From: Escherichia coli
GTDB taxonomy: Bacteria > Pseudomonadota > Gammaproteobacteria > Enterobacterales > Enterobacteriaceae
Assembly (NCBI RefSeq): GCF_045037415.1
Contig: NZ_CP173438.1
Length of the DNA: 64,000 nucleotides
Strand: one strand, 5' to 3'
Shown: positions 3,592 to 60,816 of the stretch, piece after piece
Position numbering within the stretch: the stretch's first letter is position 1
How the letters are laid out: every line of letters starts with the position of its first letter
Translations under genes and position numbers: made by a program
Notes under the pieces: model-generated
Database searches by the model: none
Seen by the model: only the letters and a program-made list of their open reading frames with translations
Told to the model about the DNA's origin: nothing

Positions 3592-4965
3592 TTACCCCAA
3601 CCGCGCCTGCGCAAAAGCAATCGCCTGCGCCACCTGTTGCGGTGAGACACCGCCTTTTGCCGCACGCTTGTCGAGGCACGATTGCAGCGACAGAATCGGA
3701 TAGACATCTTCGCCAATCACCAGGCTGAATTTCTGCAACTCACTGAGTGGCAGATCTTCCAGCGGTTTGCCCTGACGAATGGCTTCCACCACCGCTTCAC
3801 CCACAATATGGTGCGCCTCGCGGAACGGTACGCCTTTCGCCACCAGATAATCCGCCAGTTCAGTAGCGTTGGAGTAACCCTGCTGCGCCGCTTCCTGGCA
3901 ACGCGGACGTTTCACCTGAATGCCGTCCAGCACCAGCGCCGCCATATGCAGGCAGTCCAGCCAGGTATCGAGCGCGTCGAACAGACCTTCTTTGTCTTCC
4001 TGCATATCTTTGTTGTAAGCCAGCGGCAAACCTTTCAGCGTCATCATCATGCCGGTTAACGCCCCCTGCACCCGACCGCATTTACCGCGAATCAGCTCCA
4101 GCGCATCCGGGTTTTTCTTCTGCGGCATTAATGATGAACCGGAAGTCACACGGTCAGAAAGCTCCACAAACCCCGCTTCGCCGGTGTTAAAGAAAATCAG
4201 ATCTTCAGCAAAACGCGACAGATGCACCATGCCGATAGCGGCAGCAGAAAGCAGTTCCAACACATGGTCACGGTCAGAAACGCTGTCGAGACTGTTACGG
4301 GTCGCCGAAGCAAAGCCCAGCCAACCTGCTAACTGTTCACGGTCGATTTCATAGGCCGTTCCTGCCAGTGCGCCACAGCCTAGCGGGCTGACATCCAGAC
4401 GCTTAAGCGCATCCTGCAAACGGCTTTCATCACGCGCCAGCATCTCAACGTAGGCCAGGCACCAGTGCGCGAACGTCACCGGCTGGGCGCGTTGCAGGTG
4501 GGTGTAACCCGGCATCACCGCGTCCTGATTGTTCTGCGCGGTCTCGACCAGAGCGGATTGTAACTGCCGGTTAGCCGTCAGCAACTCGCTAACGGTATCT
4601 TTGCACCACAGTTTCAGGTCAGTTGCTACCTGATCATTACGGCTACGCCCGGTATGCAATTTTTTGCCTAACTGACCCACTTTGTCGATCAGTTTGCCTT
4701 CCACCCAGCTATGGATATCTTCGGCGTCGCTTTCAAGGATTTGTTGTGGCCTGGCGCGAACATCTTCCAGCAGCACGTTCAGCGCCTCTTCCAGTTGCGC
4801 CTGCTCTTCTGCGGTTAACACGCCGACCGTTACCAGGGCTTTGGACCAGGCCACAGAGCCAACAATATCCTGCTCCGCCAGACGGTAATCAAAGCGCAGT
4901 GAGTCGTTGAATTGTTTGAACCGTTGATCTGCTGCCTGGGTAAAACGCCCGCCCCAAAGTGCCAT
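3592..4965 (-). CDS. argH: argininosuccinate lyase
   Basis: 457-aa ORF starting [34 protein letters not shown]; position in argCBH operon. Confidence 0.95.
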
Positions 4966-8420: not shown

Positions 8421-11072
8421 ATGAACGAACAATATTCCGCATTGCGTAGTAATGTCAGTATGCTCGGCAAAGTGCTGGGAGAAACCATCAAGGATGCGTT
8501 GGGAGAACACATTCTTGAACGCGTAGAAACTATCCGTAAGTTGTCCAAATCTTCACGCGCTGGCAATGATGCTAACCGCCAGGAGTTGCTCACCACCTTA
8601 CAAAATTTGTCGAACGACGAGCTGCTGCCCGTTGCGCGTGCGTTTAGTCAGTTTCTGAACCTGGCCAACACCGCTGAGCAATACCACAGCATTTCGCCGA
8701 AAGGCGAAGCTGCCAGCAACCCGGAAGTGATCGCCCGCACCCTGCGTAAACTGAAAAACCAGCCGGAACTGAGCGAAGACACCATCAAAAAAGCAGTGGA
8801 ATCGCTGTCGCTGGAACTGGTCCTCACGGCTCACCCAACCGAAATTACCCGTCGTACACTGATCCACAAAATGGTGGAAGTGAACGCCTGTTTAAAACAG
8901 CTCGATAACAAAGATATCGCCGACTACGAACACAACCAGCTGATGCGCCGCCTGCGCCAGTTGATCGCCCAGTCATGGCATACCGATGAAATCCGTAAAC
9001 TGCGCCCAAGCCCGGTAGATGAAGCCAAATGGGGCTTTGCCGTAGTAGAAAACAGCCTGTGGCAAGGCGTACCGAATTACCTGCGCGAACTGAACGAACA
9101 ACTGGAAGAGAACCTCGGCTACAAACTGCCCGTCGAATTTGTTCCGGTACGTTTTACCTCGTGGATGGGCGGTGACCGCGACGGCAATCCGAACGTCACT
9201 GCCGATATCACCCGCCACGTCCTGCTACTCAGCCGCTGGAAAGCCACCGATTTGTTCCTGAAAGATATTCAGGTTCTGGTTTCTGAACTGTCGATGGTTG
9301 AAGCCACCCCTGAACTGCTGGCACTGGTTGGCGAAGAGGGTGCCGCAGAACCGTATCGCTATCTGATGAAAAACCTGCGTTCTCGCCTGATGGCGACACA
9401 GGCATGGCTGGAAGCGCGCCTGAAAGGCGAAGAACTGCCAAAACCAGAAGGTCTGCTGACACAAAACGAAGAACTGTGGGAACCGCTCTACGCTTGCTAC
9501 CAGTCACTTCAGGCGTGTGGCATGGGTATTATCGCCAATGGCGATCTGCTCGACACCCTGCGCCGCGTGAAATGTTTCGGCGTACCGCTGGTGCGTATTG
9601 ATATCCGTCAGGAGAGCACCCGCCATACCGAAGCGCTGGGCGAGCTGACCCGCTACCTCGGTATCGGCGACTACGAGAGCTGGTCAGAAGCCGACAAACA
9701 GGCGTTCCTGATCCGCGAACTGAACTCCAAACGTCCGCTTCTACCGCGCAACTGGCAACCAAGCGCCGAAACGCGCGAAGTGCTCGATACCTGCCAGGTG
9801 ATTGCCGAAGCGCCGCAAGGCTCCATTGCCGCCTACGTGATCTCGATGGCGAAAACGCCGTCCGACGTGCTGGCTGTCCACCTGCTGCTGAAAGAAGCGG
9901 GTATCGGGTTTGCGATGCCGGTTGCTCCGCTGTTTGAAACCCTCGATGACCTGAACAACGCCAACGATGTCATGACCCAGCTGCTGAATATCGACTGGTA
10001 TCGCGGCCTGATTCAGGGCAAACAGATGGTGATGATTGGCTATTCCGACTCAGCAAAAGATGCGGGCGTGATGGCAGCTTCCTGGGCGCAATATCAGGCA
10101 CAGGATGCATTAATCAAAACCTGCGAAAAAGCGGGTATTGAGCTGACGTTGTTCCACGGTCGCGGCGGTTCCATTGGTCGCGGCGGCGCACCTGCCCATG
10201 CGGCGCTGCTGTCACAACCGCCAGGAAGCCTGAAAGGTGGCCTGCGCGTGACCGAACAGGGCGAGATGATCCGCTTTAAATATGGTCTGCCAGAAATCAC
10301 CGTCAGCAGCCTGTCGCTGTACACCGGGGCGATTCTGGAAGCCAACCTGCTGCCACCGCCTGAGCCGAAAGAGAGCTGGCGTCGCATTATGGATGAACTG
10401 TCAGTCATCTCCTGCGATCTCTACCGTGGCTACGTACGTGAAAACAAAGATTTTGTGCCTTACTTCCGCTCCGCTACGCCGGAACAAGAATTGGGTAAAC
10501 TGCCGTTGGGTTCACGTCCGGCGAAACGTCGCCCGACCGGCGGCGTCGAGTCGCTGCGCGCCATTCCGTGGATTTTTGCCTGGACGCAAAACCGCCTGAT
10601 GCTCCCCGCCTGGCTGGGTGCAGGTACGGCGCTGCAAAAAGTGGTCGAAGATGGCAAACAGAGCGAGCTGGAAGCCATGTGCCGCGATTGGCCATTCTTC
10701 TCGACGCGTCTCGGCATGCTGGAGATGGTCTTCGCCAAAGCAGACCTGTGGCTGGCAGAATACTATGACCAACGCCTGGTCGACAAAGCACTGTGGCCGT
10801 TAGGTAAAGAGTTACGCAATCTGCAAGAAGAAGACATCAAAGTGGTGCTGGCGATTGCCAACGATTCTCACCTGATGGCCGATCTGCCGTGGATTGCAGA
10901 GTCTATTCAGCTACGGAATATTTACACCGACCCGCTGAACGTATTGCAGGCCGAGTTGCTGCACCGCTCCCGCCAGGCAGAAAAAGAAGGCCATGAACCG
11001 GATCCTCGCGTCGAGCAGGCGTTAATGGTCACTATTGCCGGGATTGCGGCAGGTATGCGTAATACCGGCTAA
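8421..11072 (+). CDS. ppc: phosphoenolpyruvate carboxylase
   Basis: 883-aa [28 protein letters not shown]..., ends GMRNTG. Confidence 0.97.
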
Positions 11073-13008: not shown

Positions 13009-13092
<84 letters not shown>

Positions 13093-23644: not shown

Positions 23645-23743
23645 GCCTGATGCGCTACGCTTATCAGGCCTACGCAATCTCTGCAATATAGTAAATTTAC
23701 GTACTTTTGTAGACCGGATAAGGCGTTCACGCCGCATCCGGCA
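23645..23743. repeat. REP pair (BIME)
   Basis: gcctgatgcgctacgcttatcaggcctac and gtagaccggataaggcgttcacgccgcatccggca. Confidence 0.8.
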
Positions 23744-28026: not shown

Positions 28027-28920
<894 letters not shown>

Positions 28921-28969
28921 TTACCTCATCAATCGCTTATCGTTATATGTTGTGTTGTGCACATCTATC

Positions 28970-28995
28970 CGTTTAGACGTCCAGATGTAAAGATG
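28970..28995. promoter_or_regulatory. MetJ operator (met boxes) of metF promoter
   Basis: tttagacgtccagatgtaaag contains AGACGTC met-box repeats upstream of the metF start. Confidence 0.6.
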
Positions 28996-29216
28996 AAGGA
29001 AAAGCCGAAGGGCGTCAACCGAAAAATAACCAATGATGGTGAGGAAAAATCAGGGAAGATGAAAAAAACTCATCTTAATTAGAGGCGATAAAAGATTTCT
29101 CTATAGCGCAATCCACCTCGCACGTTTTGACTCATATTCTGACAACACAGCGACACCTGGGCTAATTCGAAAAACAACGTCCTGCCACCGGATGGTGATG
29201 TTAAGGCATCTGATTC

Positions 29217-29238
29217 GGCCTGCGCCCTCGCGTAGGCC
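29217..29238 (-). terminator. imperfect hairpin downstream of the nucleotidase-like gene
   Basis: ggcctgcgccctcgcgtaggcc, 8-bp stem with one mismatch, about 60 bp beyond the minus-strand stop at 29299; no clear U-tract. Confidence 0.3.
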
Positions 29239-29298
29239 GAATACAGGATCTGCGCAATCAACGGGTAACAAACAGTTGAGTCAATTCAGTGCGCACTT

Positions 29299-30852
29299 TT
29301 ATTTGATATCCTTCACGCGCATACCGTTGAGCTGTTCATCCGTAATGGTGTTGCCCGCTTTGAAGTAATCAACCACCGCGTGATAAACGTAATAACCGCC
29401 CGTTGTGTTACGCGCTTTCCCTTCGGTAAAGGCGGTAAAACCATCTCCACCATCAGCAAGGAAACTCTGAGTAGCAATGTGATAAACCGTCGCATCTTCA
29501 ATGGGTTTGCCATTCAAAGTCAGTGTGATTACCCGCTGACCAACCGGCCTGTTGCTGTCGTACTTCATTTCCAGGCCTTTCGATACCTGTAAAACGCCAT
29601 TGCTTAAACTTGCGCCGTGTTCCATCAGACTGCGTAATTGTTTACCCATGAGTTCCATCGTCACCAGTTCGTTGGGGAACGGAAACGTACTGATGACGCC
29701 GCCCATCGTGATCGCCCCTGCGGGGATCTCATTGCGGATACCACCAGAGTTTGTTAACGCCAGTTGGGTGTTTTTACCCGCCGCTACCAATAAAGCGTCA
29801 GCCGCCAGGTTCCCGAGGGAAGCCGATTCACCATAGGCACGTTTTAATTCAACCGGCGATTGCGCCACCGTTTGTTGCACCACTTCATCAAGCTTTTTAT
29901 TCCAGCCGTCGATCACCTGTTTCGTTTGCGGATCGGGCTTCCACTCGTCAGCGTAAATGGTTTTAAGCTCGAAGTTTTTCACCGTAAAATTATGCGGCTT
30001 CTCTTTGTAGTCGAGAACCAGTTTGCCCACATCAATCCCGCCGCTGTCAGTGGAGAGGATGAGCGTATTGCCGACTTTAATCGGTTCCGGCGTACCCACA
30101 TGTGCATGTCCGGTGATCAAAATATCCAGCCCTTTCACCTGACTTGCCGTCTGAATATCTTTATCCAACGCGCGACGCACATCTGTGCCTCCCATACTGG
30201 ACTGGCGGGCTGGAACACCTTCGTGGATCAGGGCGACGGTCAAATCAACCTTGCCTTTGAGTTCATCGATATAACGTTGTAGCCATTTAATTTCATCGCG
30301 CGCTTCAATACCCACGCGCGTGGCAGCAGATACCGTATCATTAAAGGCAAATACTCCGTGCAAACCAATAACGCCTATTTTCACACCGTCTTTTTCGATG
30401 ATGGTATAGGGCTTATCCCAGAATGATTTACTGCTGTTCTGATAAAAAATATTGCCCTGCACAATAGGGAATTTTGCCTGGCTCAACTGTAATAATGTGT
30501 TGTCCCAGCCGTGGTCAAATTCATGGTTGCCTATTGTGACGGCATCAAACGGCATAGTATTCATAATATCGATAATAGCCTTACCTTTGGTCAGGCTGCT
30601 GATATATGGCCCGGTAAAATAGTCGCCCGCATCAAAAAACCATGTCGCTTTATTTTTTGCTTTTTCTTGCTTAACCAGCGTAGTGATATTTGCCCAGCCG
30701 CCAATATCCCGTTTACCGTCAGCGATCCACGGCACTTTATAAGGCTCGACATGTGCATGGAGGTCGTTGGTATAAATGATGGTGACATCTTTAGCGCAAG
30801 CCCAGAATGGCAGTGTTAATGCGATACCCGCAGCAAGTATTTTAATTTTCAT
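29299..30852 (-). CDS. secreted bifunctional metallophosphoesterase / 5'-nucleotidase-family protein (UshA/CpdB-like); not in K-12 at this position
   Basis: 517-aa ORF with signal peptide [20 protein letters not shown]; calcineurin-like motifs [38 protein letters not shown]; C-terminal half consistent with 5'-nucleotidase substrate-binding domain. Confidence 0.8.
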
Positions 30853-30984
30853 AAACAGTCCCTTTCAGTGAGATAAAGGATTGCTACATTACGTTCTGAA
30901 AGACTTATTTATGTGAGAGTAATCACATCCGCAGGGGATAGTTGCCGGACAAAATCAACGACCTTGTGAAATCGTTGGTGATAT

Positions 30985-32115
30985 ATGTCGACTCTGTTTA
31001 CGATTAATGCCTGTAAGTCGTTTGGTTGCCGTAATTTAGGGCAGCCAACATCGACAGATTATAGCTGGCCCGACTATCGACTGGGTTATCCGGCACTGCA
31101 CTGTCGGGCATGTGGCAGTTACCCGCCGTTGTTTGACGAGCAACAATTTCGTGACTGGTTGACAGTTCACTTATCTACTTTTGCAACAGAGAAAGGCCAT
31201 TTTTGCCCGGTATGTTATGGCACAGAGACGATTTGTTATGGTCACAATCCACAGGGTTCGCAACGCATTCAATGCCGTAACTGCAAAAAAGTATGGACAC
31301 CCAAACAATATCAGAAAGAAATAACGACTCCCGAAATAATCGAAACGGTTGCTTTGCTCGTGCCATTTCAGGGAGTCAGCAGCGGGCAGAAACTGTATGT
31401 TTTAATCAGTTTTGATGCTCTTCGCGGTAATATTCTTCATCTTTCTACTAATTACACGCAGCATCAGGCTGGAGAAAGTCTGCATTATCGATACAGAGGA
31501 AATGCAGAACCAGAGTTACACGACAATAATATTGTACAACGCGTTGATATGCGCGAAGCACAATTTCTACGCCGCAGTCAGTTTGATGAAATTCAGTATG
31601 GCAGCGCAGCGCTCAAGCGCAATGCCAAAGGCGCTATTCTGCGTCCGGTTATCACTGCACACGGGCATTTCAGAGTACTGAATATTTTATTCCCTACAGT
31701 AAAAACACATGTAATTTCACACGAGTGTTTTTTAAGAGGTGCCATTATTACGGCCTGGGCTGATCTGTTTCGCCAACAGCAAGGTGAAATTTGGTTTATT
31801 GAAGAGGAAATAGCTGACGATACCGATAATATGCCCTGGCGTTTTCAGGGAAAAACTTATCACGGCTGGTGGAAAAATCAGTGGCAACTCTGGGTTCAGG
31901 GAAAAAATCGTAAAATGGTATGTGCATTAACGGGCGGAAAGAGTAGCAAAGCAGAAATGCTCTCTTTAGCAACCAGCAGACATTTTATCGACTGGCTACA
32001 TAAACAAGCAGTATTTACTCACAGCGCCCCGCTTTCCGCAGGGCGCGTTACGCAAATACTGCTTTCTCTGGCTCAGGATTACAACAACTGCGCCAGTCGG
32101 TTAATATCCGACTGA
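30985..32115 (+). CDS. cysteine-rich zinc-ribbon protein, transposase-like N-terminus (IS1 InsA / IS1595-type zinc finger), C-terminal domain of unknown function
   Basis: 376-aa ORF; CxxC pairs at C10/C15, C40/C43, C74/C77, C97/C100; CPVCYGTETICYGHNPQGSQRIQCRNCKKVW parallels the IS1 InsA CPxC...QRYxCxxCxKxW pattern; hand-estimated GC near 42 percent; last 37 nt overlap the antisense metL 3' end. Confidence 0.65.
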   Translation: MSTLFTINACKSFGCRNLGQPTSTDYSWPDYRLGYPALHCRACGSYPPLFDEQQFRDWLTVHLSTFATEKGHFCPVCYGTETICYGHNPQGSQRIQCRNCKKVWTPKQYQKEITTPEIIETVALLVPFQGVSSGQKLYVLISFDALRGNILHLSTNYTQHQAGESLHYRYRGNAEPELHDNNIVQRVDMREAQFLRRSQFDEIQYGSAALKRNAKGAILRPVITAHGHFRVLNILFPTVKTHVISHECFLRGAIITAWADLFRQQQGEIWFIEEEIADDTDNMPWRFQGKTYHGWWKNQWQLWVQGKNRKMVCALTGGKSSKAEMLSLATSRHFIDWLHKQAVFTHSAPLSAGRVTQILLSLAQDYNNCASRLISD

Positions 32116-34511
32116 ATCGCCCCGGCGGTGACGTCGCGCCCTGCACCTGGCCCGCGGATCACCAGCGGGTTGTCGCGATACCAGCGGCTTTCGATGGCAA
32201 AGACGTTATCGCATGGCAGTAGTGATGCCAGCGGATGGTCTTCACGCACCGCTTCCACGCCCACACGCGCTTTGCCATTGGCATCGAAACGCGCCACGTA
32301 GCGCAGCACCAGCCCCATTTCGCGGGCCGCTTCCAGTCGTTGCACCATCTGCTCGTTAAGTTCATCGCCATTTTCAAAGAAATGGTCGATGCTGCCGCCT
32401 TCGCAATGGGCAGGCACCAGTGATTCAACACGTACCTGGTCCGGTTCAATGTTGTAACCCGCTTCACGCGCCAGAATCACCAGCTTGCGCATTACGTCTT
32501 TGCCGGAAAGGTCATCACGCGGGTCAGGTTCGGTTAAGCCTTGCTGCCACGCCTGATCCACCAGTTCGGTAAACGGCACGCTACCGTCGAATTGCAGGAA
32601 CAGCCAGGAGAGCGTGCCGGAGAAGATCCCACTGATCGACAAAATGGTATCGCCGCTGTCGATCAGATCGCGCACGGTATGGTTGATCGGCAAACCCGCA
32701 CCGACGGTGGCGTTGTACAGCCAGTGACGCCCGGTTTTTTCGAAGGCGTCGTGGATCTGGCGATATTTATTGCTGTCGCTTGCTCCTGCCAGTTTGTTGG
32801 CACTGATGACGTGGAAACCGTGGCTGGCGAAATCAAGATACTGGTCAGCGAGCTGCTGGCTGGCGGTAACGTCCAGCACCACTAAATCATCATACGGATG
32901 GGCGCGCATCCACAGGAACAGCGACTCTTCATCCTGCTCGACCGCTTCATCGTTGAAGAAGGCTAACGCGCGGCTGGCGTCCAGACCGTCATAGCTCAAC
33001 AGGCTACGGCGGCTGTCCACCACGCCTGCCAGCACAAATTCAAAGCCGGTACGTGCCGAAAGCGTACTCTGCTCACGGGCGAACAGTTCCAGCCAGCGGG
33101 AACCGATATTGCCCTTGCCGAACAATACCAGGCCGATGCGTTTTTCCGCGCGGAAGACGGACTGATGCAGCCCCTGAATCAGGCTTTCGGTCGGGCCGGT
33201 GCGCAGTACTGCCACCAGGCTGATGCCGTCATCGGACTGCCAGGTAAATTCGACCGGCTGGCCTTTCAGTTGCTGCCAGAAGCGGTGGCAATGCAGCGGG
33301 TTACGGGTGACGCCCGCCCCAACCATCGCCACCAGCGCCAGCCCCTGACGCAGGCGCAGTTCGCCAGGTAATCCCGCTTCGTCGAGGATTTTCAGCGCAC
33401 TGTCGGCCACTTCTGAGGTGTAGCAAAATTGCAGCAACTGGCGATCGTTATGCACGCCAACCGCCAGTGGACGTACCTGAGCACGTTTCAGGATCTGGTC
33501 GATCTCTTTATGCGCCAGTTTGAAATCCTGGCTGGCGGGCACCTGAAACTCAATCAAGCAGACATCATCATGGCTGGTGACAATACGCGCACCAGTACCG
33601 GAGGCCAGCACGCGTTCAATGCGCGTGGAACCTTGATCCGGCGTGTAGCTACAGCGCAGTTGCAGGTCGATTTCGCTGCCAGAAACGGGCTGTAAAGTAC
33701 GGGCATGAAGAACGGGAGCCGCCAGACGCGCCAGTTCGCTGGCTTCATCCAGACGCAGCAACGGCAGCAGGCAGGCATCTTTCACTTTACGCGGGTCGGC
33801 GCTATATACCCCGGCGACGTCGCTCCAGATGGTTACGCGAGAAACACCCGCCAGCGCACCGATTTGTGTCGCGGAATAGTCGGAACCGTTACGCCCCAGC
33901 AGCACCGTTTCACCGGCGTTGTTACGGCTGATAAACCCGGTCACCACCAGACGTTTGCCCGGATGTTGTACCAGTAGCTGTTGCAGCAACGGGTAAGAAA
34001 GCCCTTCATCAACCTGCGGTTGCGCAGCGCGTTCAGCGCGTAAAAACTCGCGGGCATCAAGCCAGGCCGATGGCAGCCCTTGTTGATTAAGCACCGCAGA
34101 CATCAGGCGCGCCGACCACACTTCACCGTGGCCCACCACTTCCGCATACACCGCATCGTTAATACCGCTGTCGAGCAACGCCGCCAGGCGCTCAAGATCG
34201 CTGACAAAAGCGCTAATGAGGTTATCGGCTTCTTCGGCGGGTAGCAGGCCGCTAATCAGATCGCACTGATAACGACGTAATGTTTGTTGAACCTGATGCG
34301 CAGAGAGACGATCGGTCTGGCTTAGTTTCAACCAGTTAATCAACTGGTTAGTGGTGCTACCGGCGGCGGAAACCACCATCATATCGTCAGGCTGAGAGTA
34401 CTCCGCCATAATGCCCGCGACACGCAAATAACACTTCACATCAGCCAGACTACTGCCACCAAATTTATGCAGTTGACGACCTTTCGCCCCTGCCTGCGCA
34501 ATCACACTCAT
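32079..34511 (-). CDS. metL: bifunctional aspartokinase II / homoserine dehydrogenase II
   Basis: 810-aa ORF MSVIAQAGAKGRQLHKFGGSSLADVKCY... ending DINRLAQLL. Confidence 0.97.
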   Translation of the reverse strand: MSVIAQAGAKGRQLHKFGGSSLADVKCYLRVAGIMAEYSQPDDMMVVSAAGSTTNQLINWLKLSQTDRLSAHQVQQTLRRYQCDLISGLLPAEEADNLISAFVSDLERLAALLDSGINDAVYAEVVGHGEVWSARLMSAVLNQQGLPSAWLDAREFLRAERAAQPQVDEGLSYPLLQQLLVQHPGKRLVVTGFISRNNAGETVLLGRNGSDYSATQIGALAGVSRVTIWSDVAGVYSADPRKVKDACLLPLLRLDEASELARLAAPVLHARTLQPVSGSEIDLQLRCSYTPDQGSTRIERVLASGTGARIVTSHDDVCLIEFQVPASQDFKLAHKEIDQILKRAQVRPLAVGVHNDRQLLQFCYTSEVADSALKILDEAGLPGELRLRQGLALVAMVGAGVTRNPLHCHRFWQQLKGQPVEFTWQSDDGISLVAVLRTGPTESLIQGLHQSVFRAEKRIGLVLFGKGNIGSRWLELFAREQSTLSARTGFEFVLAGVVDSRRSLLSYDGLDASRALAFFNDEAVEQDEESLFLWMRAHPYDDLVVLDVTASQQLADQYLDFASHGFHVISANKLAGASDSNKYRQIHDAFEKTGRHWLYNATVGAGLPINHTVRDLIDSGDTILSISGIFSGTLSWLFLQFDGSVPFTELVDQAWQQGLTEPDPRDDLSGKDVMRKLVILAREAGYNIEPDQVRVESLVPAHCEGGSIDHFFENGDELNEQMVQRLEAAREMGLVLRYVARFDANGKARVGVEAVREDHPLASLLPCDNVFAIESRWYRDNPLVIRGPGAGRDVTAGAIQSDINRLAQLL

Positions 34512-60679: not shown

Positions 60680-60816
60680 GCCTGATGCACTACGCTTATC
60701 AGGCCTACAAAACCTGTTGAATTTATGGGTTTTGTAGGCTGGATAAGGCGTTTACGCCGCATCCGGCATTTGAGCAGGATGCCTGATGCGACGCTGATAG
60801 CGTCTTATCAGGCCTA
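60680..60816. repeat. BIME cluster of three REP elements
   Basis: gcctgatgcactacgcttatcaggcctac; gtaggctggataaggcgtttacgccgcatccggca; gcctgatgcgacgctgatagcgtcttatcaggcctac. Confidence 0.85.

Follow-up and report, generated by a model that had tools for sequence, protein, structure and literature searches.

An inherited 37-nucleotide overlap between metL and a convergent cysteine-rich gene in Escherichia coli, probably reshaped by a 14-nucleotide deletion

In the 64,000-nucleotide (nt) stretch of Escherichia coli chromosome analysed here (contig NZ_CP173438.1, assembly GCF_045037415.1; hereafter the window), an open reading frame (ORF) for a cysteine-rich (Cys-rich) protein (30985-32115, plus strand, 376 amino acids, ATG start, no in-frame stop before 32113-32115) converges on metL, the gene for aspartate kinase / homoserine dehydrogenase II (32079-34511, minus strand, 810 amino acids), and the two share 37 nt (32079-32115, both strands, phase 123:213). 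Here, I argue that this is the fixed, inherited overlap of an old gene pair, reshaped in Escherichia by a 14-nt deletion, and not the scar of an insertion, a reading to which I give a probability of about 0.78. Judged from homologous loci, the overlap predates Escherichia and would first have been one of 26 nt in another frame. It is a tidy but ordinary case of overlapping genes, of modest interest, and falls within known kinds, namely convergent overlapping genes, embedded terminators and frame-remodelled C-termini; its history is unusually legible.

The overlap holds the metL stop codon (the complement of 32079-32081), 11 sense codons and 1 nt, and the junction reads ...GAT TAC AAC AAC TGC GCC AGT CGG TTA ATA TCC GAC TGA on the plus strand. 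The stop codon of each gene lies inside the coding sequence of its partner, an arrangement conserved in relatives. A previous sequence-only reading had reported that the plus-strand ORF runs 37 nt into the 3' end of metL, and so it does in the DNA itself, in RefSeq and in other loci of the same form: the RefSeq/PGAP annotation of an identical genome has both coding sequences and the same overlap (WP_000105529.1, locus 3686-4816, plus; metL from 4780, minus), as have two further RefSeq genomes of about 4% divergence, and overlap and ORF length were verified in seven other short-form loci, in which the Cys-rich gene likewise abuts metL (L001, L005 and L006 in E. coli, L009-L012 in a scan of one genome per species). 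Read directly from the sequence, with the phase nomenclature of PMC2174442, the third codon positions of the two genes face each other in the overlap. The length of the read-through is unremarkable, for 11 random codons are free of stops with a chance of about 0.6; the non-random aspect is the zero gene spacing and the conservation of that spacing. A 10-nt hairpin also lies within the overlap, at 32094-32114.

Exact stops, computed for each locus, fall into two registers. Frame A, with the 37-nt overlap, is found in Escherichia and Pseudocitrobacter, overlap and tail being identical in E. whittamii, a cryptic Escherichia clade and Pseudocitrobacter; frame B, with a 26-nt overlap, in six Klebsiella, Kosakonia and Phytobacter loci, whose tails (e.g. 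ATLTAAAPGD* and AAVTATAPDG*, the asterisk marking the stop) follow the pattern x-x-L-T-A-x-A-P-x-x-stop. In C. braakii and Citrobacter wls619 the ORF passes through a spacer into frame B, and a 26-nt overlap results there too. In other Citrobacter and in Superficieibacter the genes are parted by a 26-91-nt gap of palindromic DNA, which I take, from its palindromic sequence, to be of the repetitive extragenic palindromic (REP) kind; several ORFs read into these REP-like spacers (L020, L023-L029, L031-L033, ~10105-10215) and acquire tails such as LPGGAAAYRAYG... there, while a count of one REP-like core motif across the loci was uninformative.

All frame-B loci have TAYAAC (Tyr-Asn), then 7 nt, then TTACAGCAGCTGCGCC (the metL end, TTACAG...), a pattern common to the transposed copies described below. 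The window has a single TACAAC (32080-32085), directly continuous with AACTGCGCC, and is exactly 14 nt shorter than the frame-B loci. This hexamer holds the codons for Tyr366-Asn367 as well as the antisense of the Leu-Leu-stop region of metL, and is the putative junction of the 14-nt deletion; the Escherichia metL ends TTG TTG TAA, in antisense TTACAACAA. T32079 likewise does double service, as the wobble base of Asp365 and the third base of the metL stop, so that GAT or GAC at Asp365 makes the stop TAA or TAG, and both variants are observed. A vestige of frame B is still legible at 32081-32104 on the plus strand, where ACA ACA ACT GCG CCA GTC GGT TAA translates as TTTAPVG*, homologous to the tails LTA[AT]AP[DG][GD]* of Klebsiella, Kosakonia and Phytobacter. 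In the frame-B species the 8 nt behind one hexamer show no relation to those behind the other, which speaks against a duplication in these lineages. As a side remark, 14 nt placed after 32085, e.g. GCGACGCTTACAAC, would restore frame B.

The species scan (36 loci) returned the order metF, nucleotidase, Cys-rich gene, metL (then metB) in 24 loci from other species: Citrobacter (many species), Klebsiella oxytoca, K. pneumoniae, K. spallanzanii, Kosakonia, Phytobacter, Superficieibacter, Kluyvera, Salmonella enterica subsp. arizonae (decayed), Pseudocitrobacter, E. whittamii and a cryptic Escherichia clade. The same order stands in the window (katG, metF, nucleotidase, Cys-rich ORF, metL, metB, metJ, yiiX, rpmE, priA), where a UshA-like 5'-nucleotidase (29299-30852, minus strand, 517 amino acids) is the divergent partner of the Cys-rich gene. 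At least seven other genera thus have the nucleotidase/Cys-rich pair between metF and metL, and the absence from relatives that marks an island is not seen. Along the same line, the G+C content at third codon positions of the Cys-rich gene tracks the host genus (0.56-0.62 in Klebsiella, 0.41 in E. coli). Given this shared position across genera, the pair is an old resident of the interval and K-12-type genomes are the deletion form, the distribution being observed and the direction of change read from it. In the arizonae genome (L042:9001-9729), only residues 126-368 of the Cys-rich protein are matched, at 60% identity, by what appears to be a decaying copy about 950 bp from metL, next to an intact nucleotidase gene.

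A case in point for movement between genera concerns Pseudocitrobacter vendiensis (L009), whose nucleotidase and Cys-rich protein are 97% and 95% identical to those of E. coli, with 89% for katG, 93% for metF and 93% for metL; this suggests that the short form has passed between genera by homologous recombination in the flanks.

K-12 lacks positions 29068-32077 of the window and carries 197 bp of unrelated, REP-containing DNA in their place. The K-12 alignment that the sequence-only reading had proposed places the right-hand break of homology at 32077/32078: homology stops at 29067 and restarts at 32078, one base before the metL stop codon, probably because this is the last base that could be lost without damage to metL. 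The K-12 spacer (L003:1769-1965) includes a REP-like element with copies in the window at 13058-13092, 60735-60768 and 23710-23743; RefSeq annotates a hypothetical ORF of 44 amino acids in it, and no remnant of the lost gene pair was found in the 197 bp. A segment missing from K-12 is commonly taken for an acquisition in pangenome work; here that polarity is corrected, the segment most likely being ancestral and K-12 a deletion.

Within E. coli, 5426 complete genomes were surveyed. A whole-segment probe was present in 1837 of them (34%), and a 401-nt junction probe, covered to at least 80%, in 1182, at 95.5-100% identity (the short form). A further 659 genomes carry a long form of 7.8 kb, with the nucleotidase (minus), the Cys-rich gene, two more nucleotidases and a Tsx-like channel (all plus), a hairpin and then metL; neither form is found in the remainder, K-12 included. 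In strain E2348/69 the long form spans L004:1880-9070 and has three UshA-like nucleotidases in total. Its metL stop is TAG (TAA in the short form and in K-12) and is directly followed by a perfect hairpin, AAAAGCTGGCA...TGCCAGCTTTT, a terminator of its own. The long form is the region described as "GR 31 metL..metF" in strains of avian pathogenic (APEC) and extraintestinal pathogenic (ExPEC) E. coli (PMC12928451), and this description was all that a literature search on the locus returned. The window shares with GR 31 the chromosomal interval and the gene families (UshA-like nucleotidases, Tsx-like channel); it differs in being a 3-kb short form with one nucleotidase and a Cys-rich gene that abuts metL. 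Neither the Cys-rich ORF nor the overlap is discussed in the passages of PMC12928451 available.

The conserved core of the Cys-rich protein comprises residues 1-367 and ends ...L-A-x-x-Y-N; in an alignment of 19 diverse homologues Y366 and N367 are the last invariant residues and what lies beyond is variable, with some 45 distinct tails among 120 cluster representatives. In the window, residues 368-376 (NCASRLISD) are encoded antisense to metL. Wherever the tail N-C-A-[SR]-[RL]-L-I-S-D occurs in a locus with downstream DNA, metL directly adjoins (L009-L012; L013 has the same tail type and stops at a contig end), and the tail is absent from homologues that do not adjoin metL, whether these lie 4.6 kb off, as in the E. 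coli long form, or at a different locus. The protein of the long form, 77% identical, can be aligned as far as residue 367 and then ends ESLTPSC*, where the window protein ends NCASRLISD*. The sequence-only reading had surmised that the C-terminus is created by reading into antisense metL, which this co-occurrence bears out for the part beyond Asn367. It had also named the observation that would make the C-terminus genuine and the overlap incidental, the same tail in homologues with no metL alongside; none was found on looking, and since the tail never occurs away from metL that counter-argument fails.

The MetL C-terminus is the older reading of the shared DNA. It aligns to yeast homoserine dehydrogenase as far as the second-last residue, and ...IQSDINRLAQLL* is invariant in all six short-form sequences compared while synonymous sites vary; those silent metL changes produce the tail variants Ser/Arg and Arg/Leu. 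In the AlphaFold model of the Cys-rich protein, confidence falls from above 90 to 59 across the last six residues. Because the MetL end is older and invariant, because silent changes in metL vary the tail, and because the tail is modelled with low confidence, the tail is probably best seen as a by-product dictated by MetL codons.

The shared boundary also bears on where transcripts may end. On the minus strand, 15 nt past the metL stop, begins an interrupted hairpin (32006-32064; inverted repeat I1) with 27-nt arms (32006-32032 and 32038-32064) and a 5-nt loop, lying within Cys-rich codons 341-360 and directly followed, on the metL strand, by a U-rich run, GUUUAUGUAG (31996-32005). The 211 nt of metL-strand RNA past the stop fold with z = -6.1, and the 78-nt fold of the hairpin itself has a minimum free energy (MFE) of -41 kcal/mol and z = -5.7. 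The homologous 78 nt were folded in 38 loci. MFE ranged from -30 to -41 kcal/mol (z -2.7 to -8.0) in eight short-form loci and from -30 to -42 kcal/mol (z -3.2 to -6.3) in three Klebsiella loci with the 26-nt overlap; it ranged from -9 to -25 kcal/mol (z -0.9 to +1.9) in 22 loci where metL lies behind a REP spacer, is kilobases off or is absent, a group that includes the E. coli long form with its own post-metL hairpin, and from -16 to -28 kcal/mol (z -1.7 to +0.8) in five other loci with the 26-nt overlap (Kosakonia, two Phytobacter, two Citrobacter). In the alignment of Escherichia and Klebsiella, 95.7% of cells are paired, versus 36-54% when the partners are slid, and two pairs are compensatory. 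The U-tract 3' of the stem is GUUUAUGU in E. coli (5 U in 8), UUUUU in K. pneumoniae, UUUU in K. oxytoca and UGCUCU in K. spallanzanii. A scan for consensus promoters and terminators flagged nothing between the genes and also missed the interrupted hairpin, and no Rfam family was matched in 28900-32600 at E<=1.

I propose that this hairpin is an embedded terminator of metL, or a stabiliser of its 3' end after Rho termination; there being no intergenic DNA, the end of the metL mRNA would be supplied by a hairpin within Cys-rich codons, and its position suggests that metL transcripts would stop about 75-85 nt into the Cys-rich gene. If so, the coding sequence of a neighbour can take over the role of a terminator once intergenic DNA disappears. 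The same hairpin read on the plus strand has no U's after it, and past the Cys-rich stop the plus strand folds with z = -0.7 and offers no terminator candidate; with no special structure there, the Cys-rich transcript probably runs antisense into metL until it meets Rho or a distant site. Two further repeats were noticed nearby. A perfect 10-nt inverted repeat, GCAGGGCGCG / CGCGCCCTGC, at 32038-32047 and 32135-32144, has its copies 87 nt apart, spans the overlap and ties the right arm of the hairpin to a site within metL. Between the Cys-rich and nucleotidase genes, in their 132-bp divergent region (30853-30984), a terminator-like hairpin with ATTTTGTCCG (30956-30977, minus strand) would halt metL read-through across the antisense Cys-rich gene before it reached the nucleotidase gene.

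The course of events that I favour can now be laid out. The nucleotidase and Cys-rich genes are long-term residents of the metF-metL interval across Enterobacteriaceae; past the conserved ...Y-N end, translation continues to any stop that comes, tails differ widely between lineages, and in Klebsiella, Kosakonia and Phytobacter the tail runs 26 nt into the 3' end of metL, in antisense frame B. From the exact spacing and sequence, the ancestral Escherichia locus would have had TACAAC twice, 14 nt apart, and a slippage or microhomology deletion of 14 nt would have put Tyr-Asn over the metL stop, turning frame B into frame A and 26 nt into 37. The new tail would have come as a by-product, its residues set by the codons of MetL, and because the wobble positions of both genes coincide, synonymous drift in metL would be mostly silent in the tail too. 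The metL transcript would be ended or stabilised by the hairpin and U-rich run in codons 341-360. K-12-type E. coli would later have lost the pair, by a deletion that stopped at the last metL-sparing base.

Several points weigh against this account. An Escherichia genome with the undeleted 14 nt was not found, the single-step deletion being a reconstruction, and the nearest frame-B relatives have only 58-64% protein identity. With regard to the hairpin, GUUUAUGU, the run of U's in E. coli, is poor by the standard of intrinsic terminators and was passed over by a simple scan; Kosakonia and Phytobacter overlap metL with no comparable hairpin; the covariation is based on just two lineages; and the conserved residues S-A-x-L-S-A-G-R in part dictate the inner stem. 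Moreover, the Pseudocitrobacter copy is closer to that of E. coli than are the genes beside it, so that some of the spread is horizontal and an ancestral presence is not proven in each lineage. If the account holds, the locus offers a worked example, with exact nucleotides, of a microhomology deletion that switches the frame of an overprinted C-terminus.

The sequence-only reading had taken the same position for the probable right-hand junction of inserted DNA. The junction stands, inasmuch as K-12 homology breaks there; the insertion does not, for the pair is syntenic in at least seven further genera. An insertion into a K-12-like ancestor, with 32078/32079 as right-hand junction and an ORF end acquired by reading across it, would account for both breaks of homology (29067/29068 and 32077/32078), for the lower G+C content of the segment (0.43-0.45, versus 0.57-0.61 for metL) and for its presence in only 34% of E. 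coli genomes. It is nevertheless very unlikely: the same pair sits at the same site in those genera and in the Escherichia outgroups, the overlap with metL is already present in Klebsiella, Kosakonia and Phytobacter, and the DNA that replaces the segment in K-12 is REP-containing and unrelated. Only the nucleotidase and Cys-rich genes are found in 29068-32077, with no integrase, and neither att repeats nor any other flanking repeat or target duplication were noticed on reading the borders 29067/29068 and 32077/32078, across which no dedicated repeat search was made. An origin of the short form from the long one, by a 4.6-kb deletion between TACAA at the Cys-rich end and TACAA at the metL stop, was the first hypothesis, modelled on the E2348/69-type long form, and was dropped after the cross-genus scan. 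TACAA is indeed present in both sequences exactly where short/long homology ends. Yet the Cys-rich proteins are only 77% identical, with divergence greatest in the last third, the tail ESLTPSC is of the transposed type, in which the frame-B tail has degraded, the metL stops differ as noted, and it is the short form, not the long one, that is found in E. whittamii, the cryptic Escherichia clade and Pseudocitrobacter; no long-form genome was seen with a Cys-rich gene above 98% identity to that of the short form as far as TACAA, and I regard this origin as highly improbable. MAFFT also paired TGAATCGC of the long-form tail with TGAATCGC at a point 28 nt inside metL, a match judged to be a chance 8-mer and not used.

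That the overlap was selected for regulation, convergent transcription or 3'-end RNA duplexes coupling the methionine-regulated metBL to the Cys-rich regulator and to nucleotide scavenging, seems unlikely. Several genera keep zero or negative spacing, in one or other of two registers; the genes have no terminator between them, and a small hairpin (I4) lies within the overlap. The coupling is, however, dispensable, as the genes are parted by REP-like spacers in Citrobacter and Superficieibacter and by 4.6 kb in the long form, and K-12 does without the partner altogether; the embedded hairpin, besides, would limit rather than promote read-through. An annotation artefact, in which the Cys-rich ORF is no real gene or truly ends earlier and the overlap is meaningless, could appeal to the lack of a Pfam or NCBIfam family at threshold and to annotations only as hypothetical or cytoplasmic protein. 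It is almost certainly wrong, for the ratio of nonsynonymous to synonymous substitution rates (dN/dS) of the core is 0.11-0.21, an indication of purifying selection, 253 homologues are found at E<=1e-5, the AlphaFold model has a predicted local distance difference test (pLDDT) score of 94 and a predicted template modelling (pTM) score of 0.93, and no in-frame stop precedes 32113-32115. metL, for its part, is full-length with a conserved homoserine dehydrogenase domain. For annotation, then, the overlap is genuine and the 376-amino-acid product should be neither trimmed nor flagged.

Paralogous loci away from metL are found in Enterobacter, Pluralibacter, Silvania and E. albertii, and an Escherichia strain has a second copy beside kdsA. 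The tails of these relocated copies match frame B in length and pattern (e.g. KLTATPSGH* and KLTTTTSDH*), and more distant homologues have unrelated tails. In the kdsA-locus paralogues examined (L018:10096-10200 and L017:1236-1340), about 50-65 nt after the Tyr-Asn codons are metL-like: compared from the stop with antisense metL, ungapped and in register, they match K. oxytoca and E. coli at 40-43 of 66-68 nt (61-64%) and the Kosakonia metL end at 54-59%, against sliding controls with a mean of 25% and a maximum of 40%. This similarity runs about 25 nt beyond the paralogue's own stop, into non-coding DNA. Searches with tblastn and blastn beside the non-metL copies found no metL-like gene or paralogue; the putative metL fossil was missed by BLAST because it is too short, and is brought out by in-register identity versus the sliding controls. 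The ungapped test fails for Enterobacter-type copies because of indels.

On the simplest reading, the relocated copies would descend from a metL-adjacent ancestor and carry a piece of the metL 3' end with them. A wider proposal, tentative and a little short of even odds, is that the Enterobacteriaceae tail (x-K-L-T-x-x-x-S-G-D) was born by overprinting metL in antisense, that relocated copies keep a fossil of about 50-65 nt, and that the DNA may hold up to three layers of information, which in Escherichia and Klebsiella would be the last helix and tail of the Cys-rich protein, the MetL C-terminus and the metL terminator. If true, it would be a dated, stepwise example of convergent overlaps being born, frame-switched and exported, and would mean that a gene can take part of a neighbouring housekeeping gene along, as a fossil, when it moves. 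Phages and islands integrate into the 3' ends of genes and provide a substitute 3' end, as e14/phage 21 do in icd. Likewise, a short copy of a housekeeping gene 3' end travels with a mobile segment at the kdsA locus; unlike the icd type, that fossil has no integrase nearby, stands beside kdsA and not metL, and is degraded (~62% identity). With no integrase present and the fossil at the wrong target, an origin akin to an attachment site is less likely; the fossil looks like a passenger remnant rather than an attachment site. Two Escherichia genomes have both kinds of locus, with Cys-rich copies about 66-71% identical: E. coli SCPM-O-B-8794 (L010, L018) has the short form at metL and a larger nucleotidase/tsx cluster beside kdsA (L018), and Escherichia sp. 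MOD1-EC7003 (L012, L038) the short form at metL and a larger nucleotidase/tsx cluster elsewhere.

With respect to known systems, E. coli has 58 convergent overlaps, of which 21 have a Rho-independent terminator within coding sequence (PMC2174442). The Cys-rich/metL pair resembles these in its shared 3' ends and in a hairpin and U-run within the partner's codons; it differs in that its history is traceable, from 26 nt in phase 123:132 to 37 nt in phase 123:213 by way of the putative 14-nt deletion, and in that its hairpin is present in overlapping Escherichia and Klebsiella and not in overlapping Kosakonia and Phytobacter. The remodelled C-termini and overprinting described for the E. coli pangenome (PMC8788219) are similar in that a small indel shifts the frame and yields a new, lineage-specific C-terminal peptide; the new peptide in the window, instead of coming from an alternative frame of the gene itself or from DNA that codes for nothing, is read antisense from a neighbouring housekeeping gene.

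As for the Cys-rich protein itself, it belongs to a small family, with 136 representatives (at 50% identity) in a set of 1.8 billion proteins. Residues 74-105 (31204-31299, plus strand) resemble the zinc ribbon of InsA from IS1/IS1595 elements, below threshold for NF050000 (21.8 bits, cut-off 28), and Pfam Zn_ribbon_InsA is matched by 17 of 54 family members, with a best E-value of 4e-8. The protein has the RNase H-like catalytic fold of IS1/IS1595 transposases; searching PDB sequences with the family profile turned up nothing meaningful, the fold search alone being informative. In the family alignment (A2), C97, C100, R197 and H228 are invariant and H246 and E247 near-invariant, and a conserved D-D-E triad was not found there, no Asp column being conserved at 90% or more. 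IS1/IS1595-type DDE transposases thus differ from this gene, which has no conserved D-D-E, keeps to a single copy per locus, syntenic from genus to genus (some have another, paralogous locus), rather than the many copies of a transposase, and is always divergently paired with secreted nucleotide hydrolases or with nucleotide-hydrolase/porin operons; even a 27%-identical relative stands opposite an operon of a porin, a class-B acid phosphatase and a class-II phosphodiesterase. Most likely, at about an even chance, it would be a domesticated transposase that now regulates nucleotide scavenging at its own locus. This uncharacterised zinc-ribbon protein, apparently of transposase origin, has secreted nucleotide hydrolases and outer-membrane channels as its consistent partners, which makes it a candidate for the control of nucleotide scavenging in regions associated with ExPEC.

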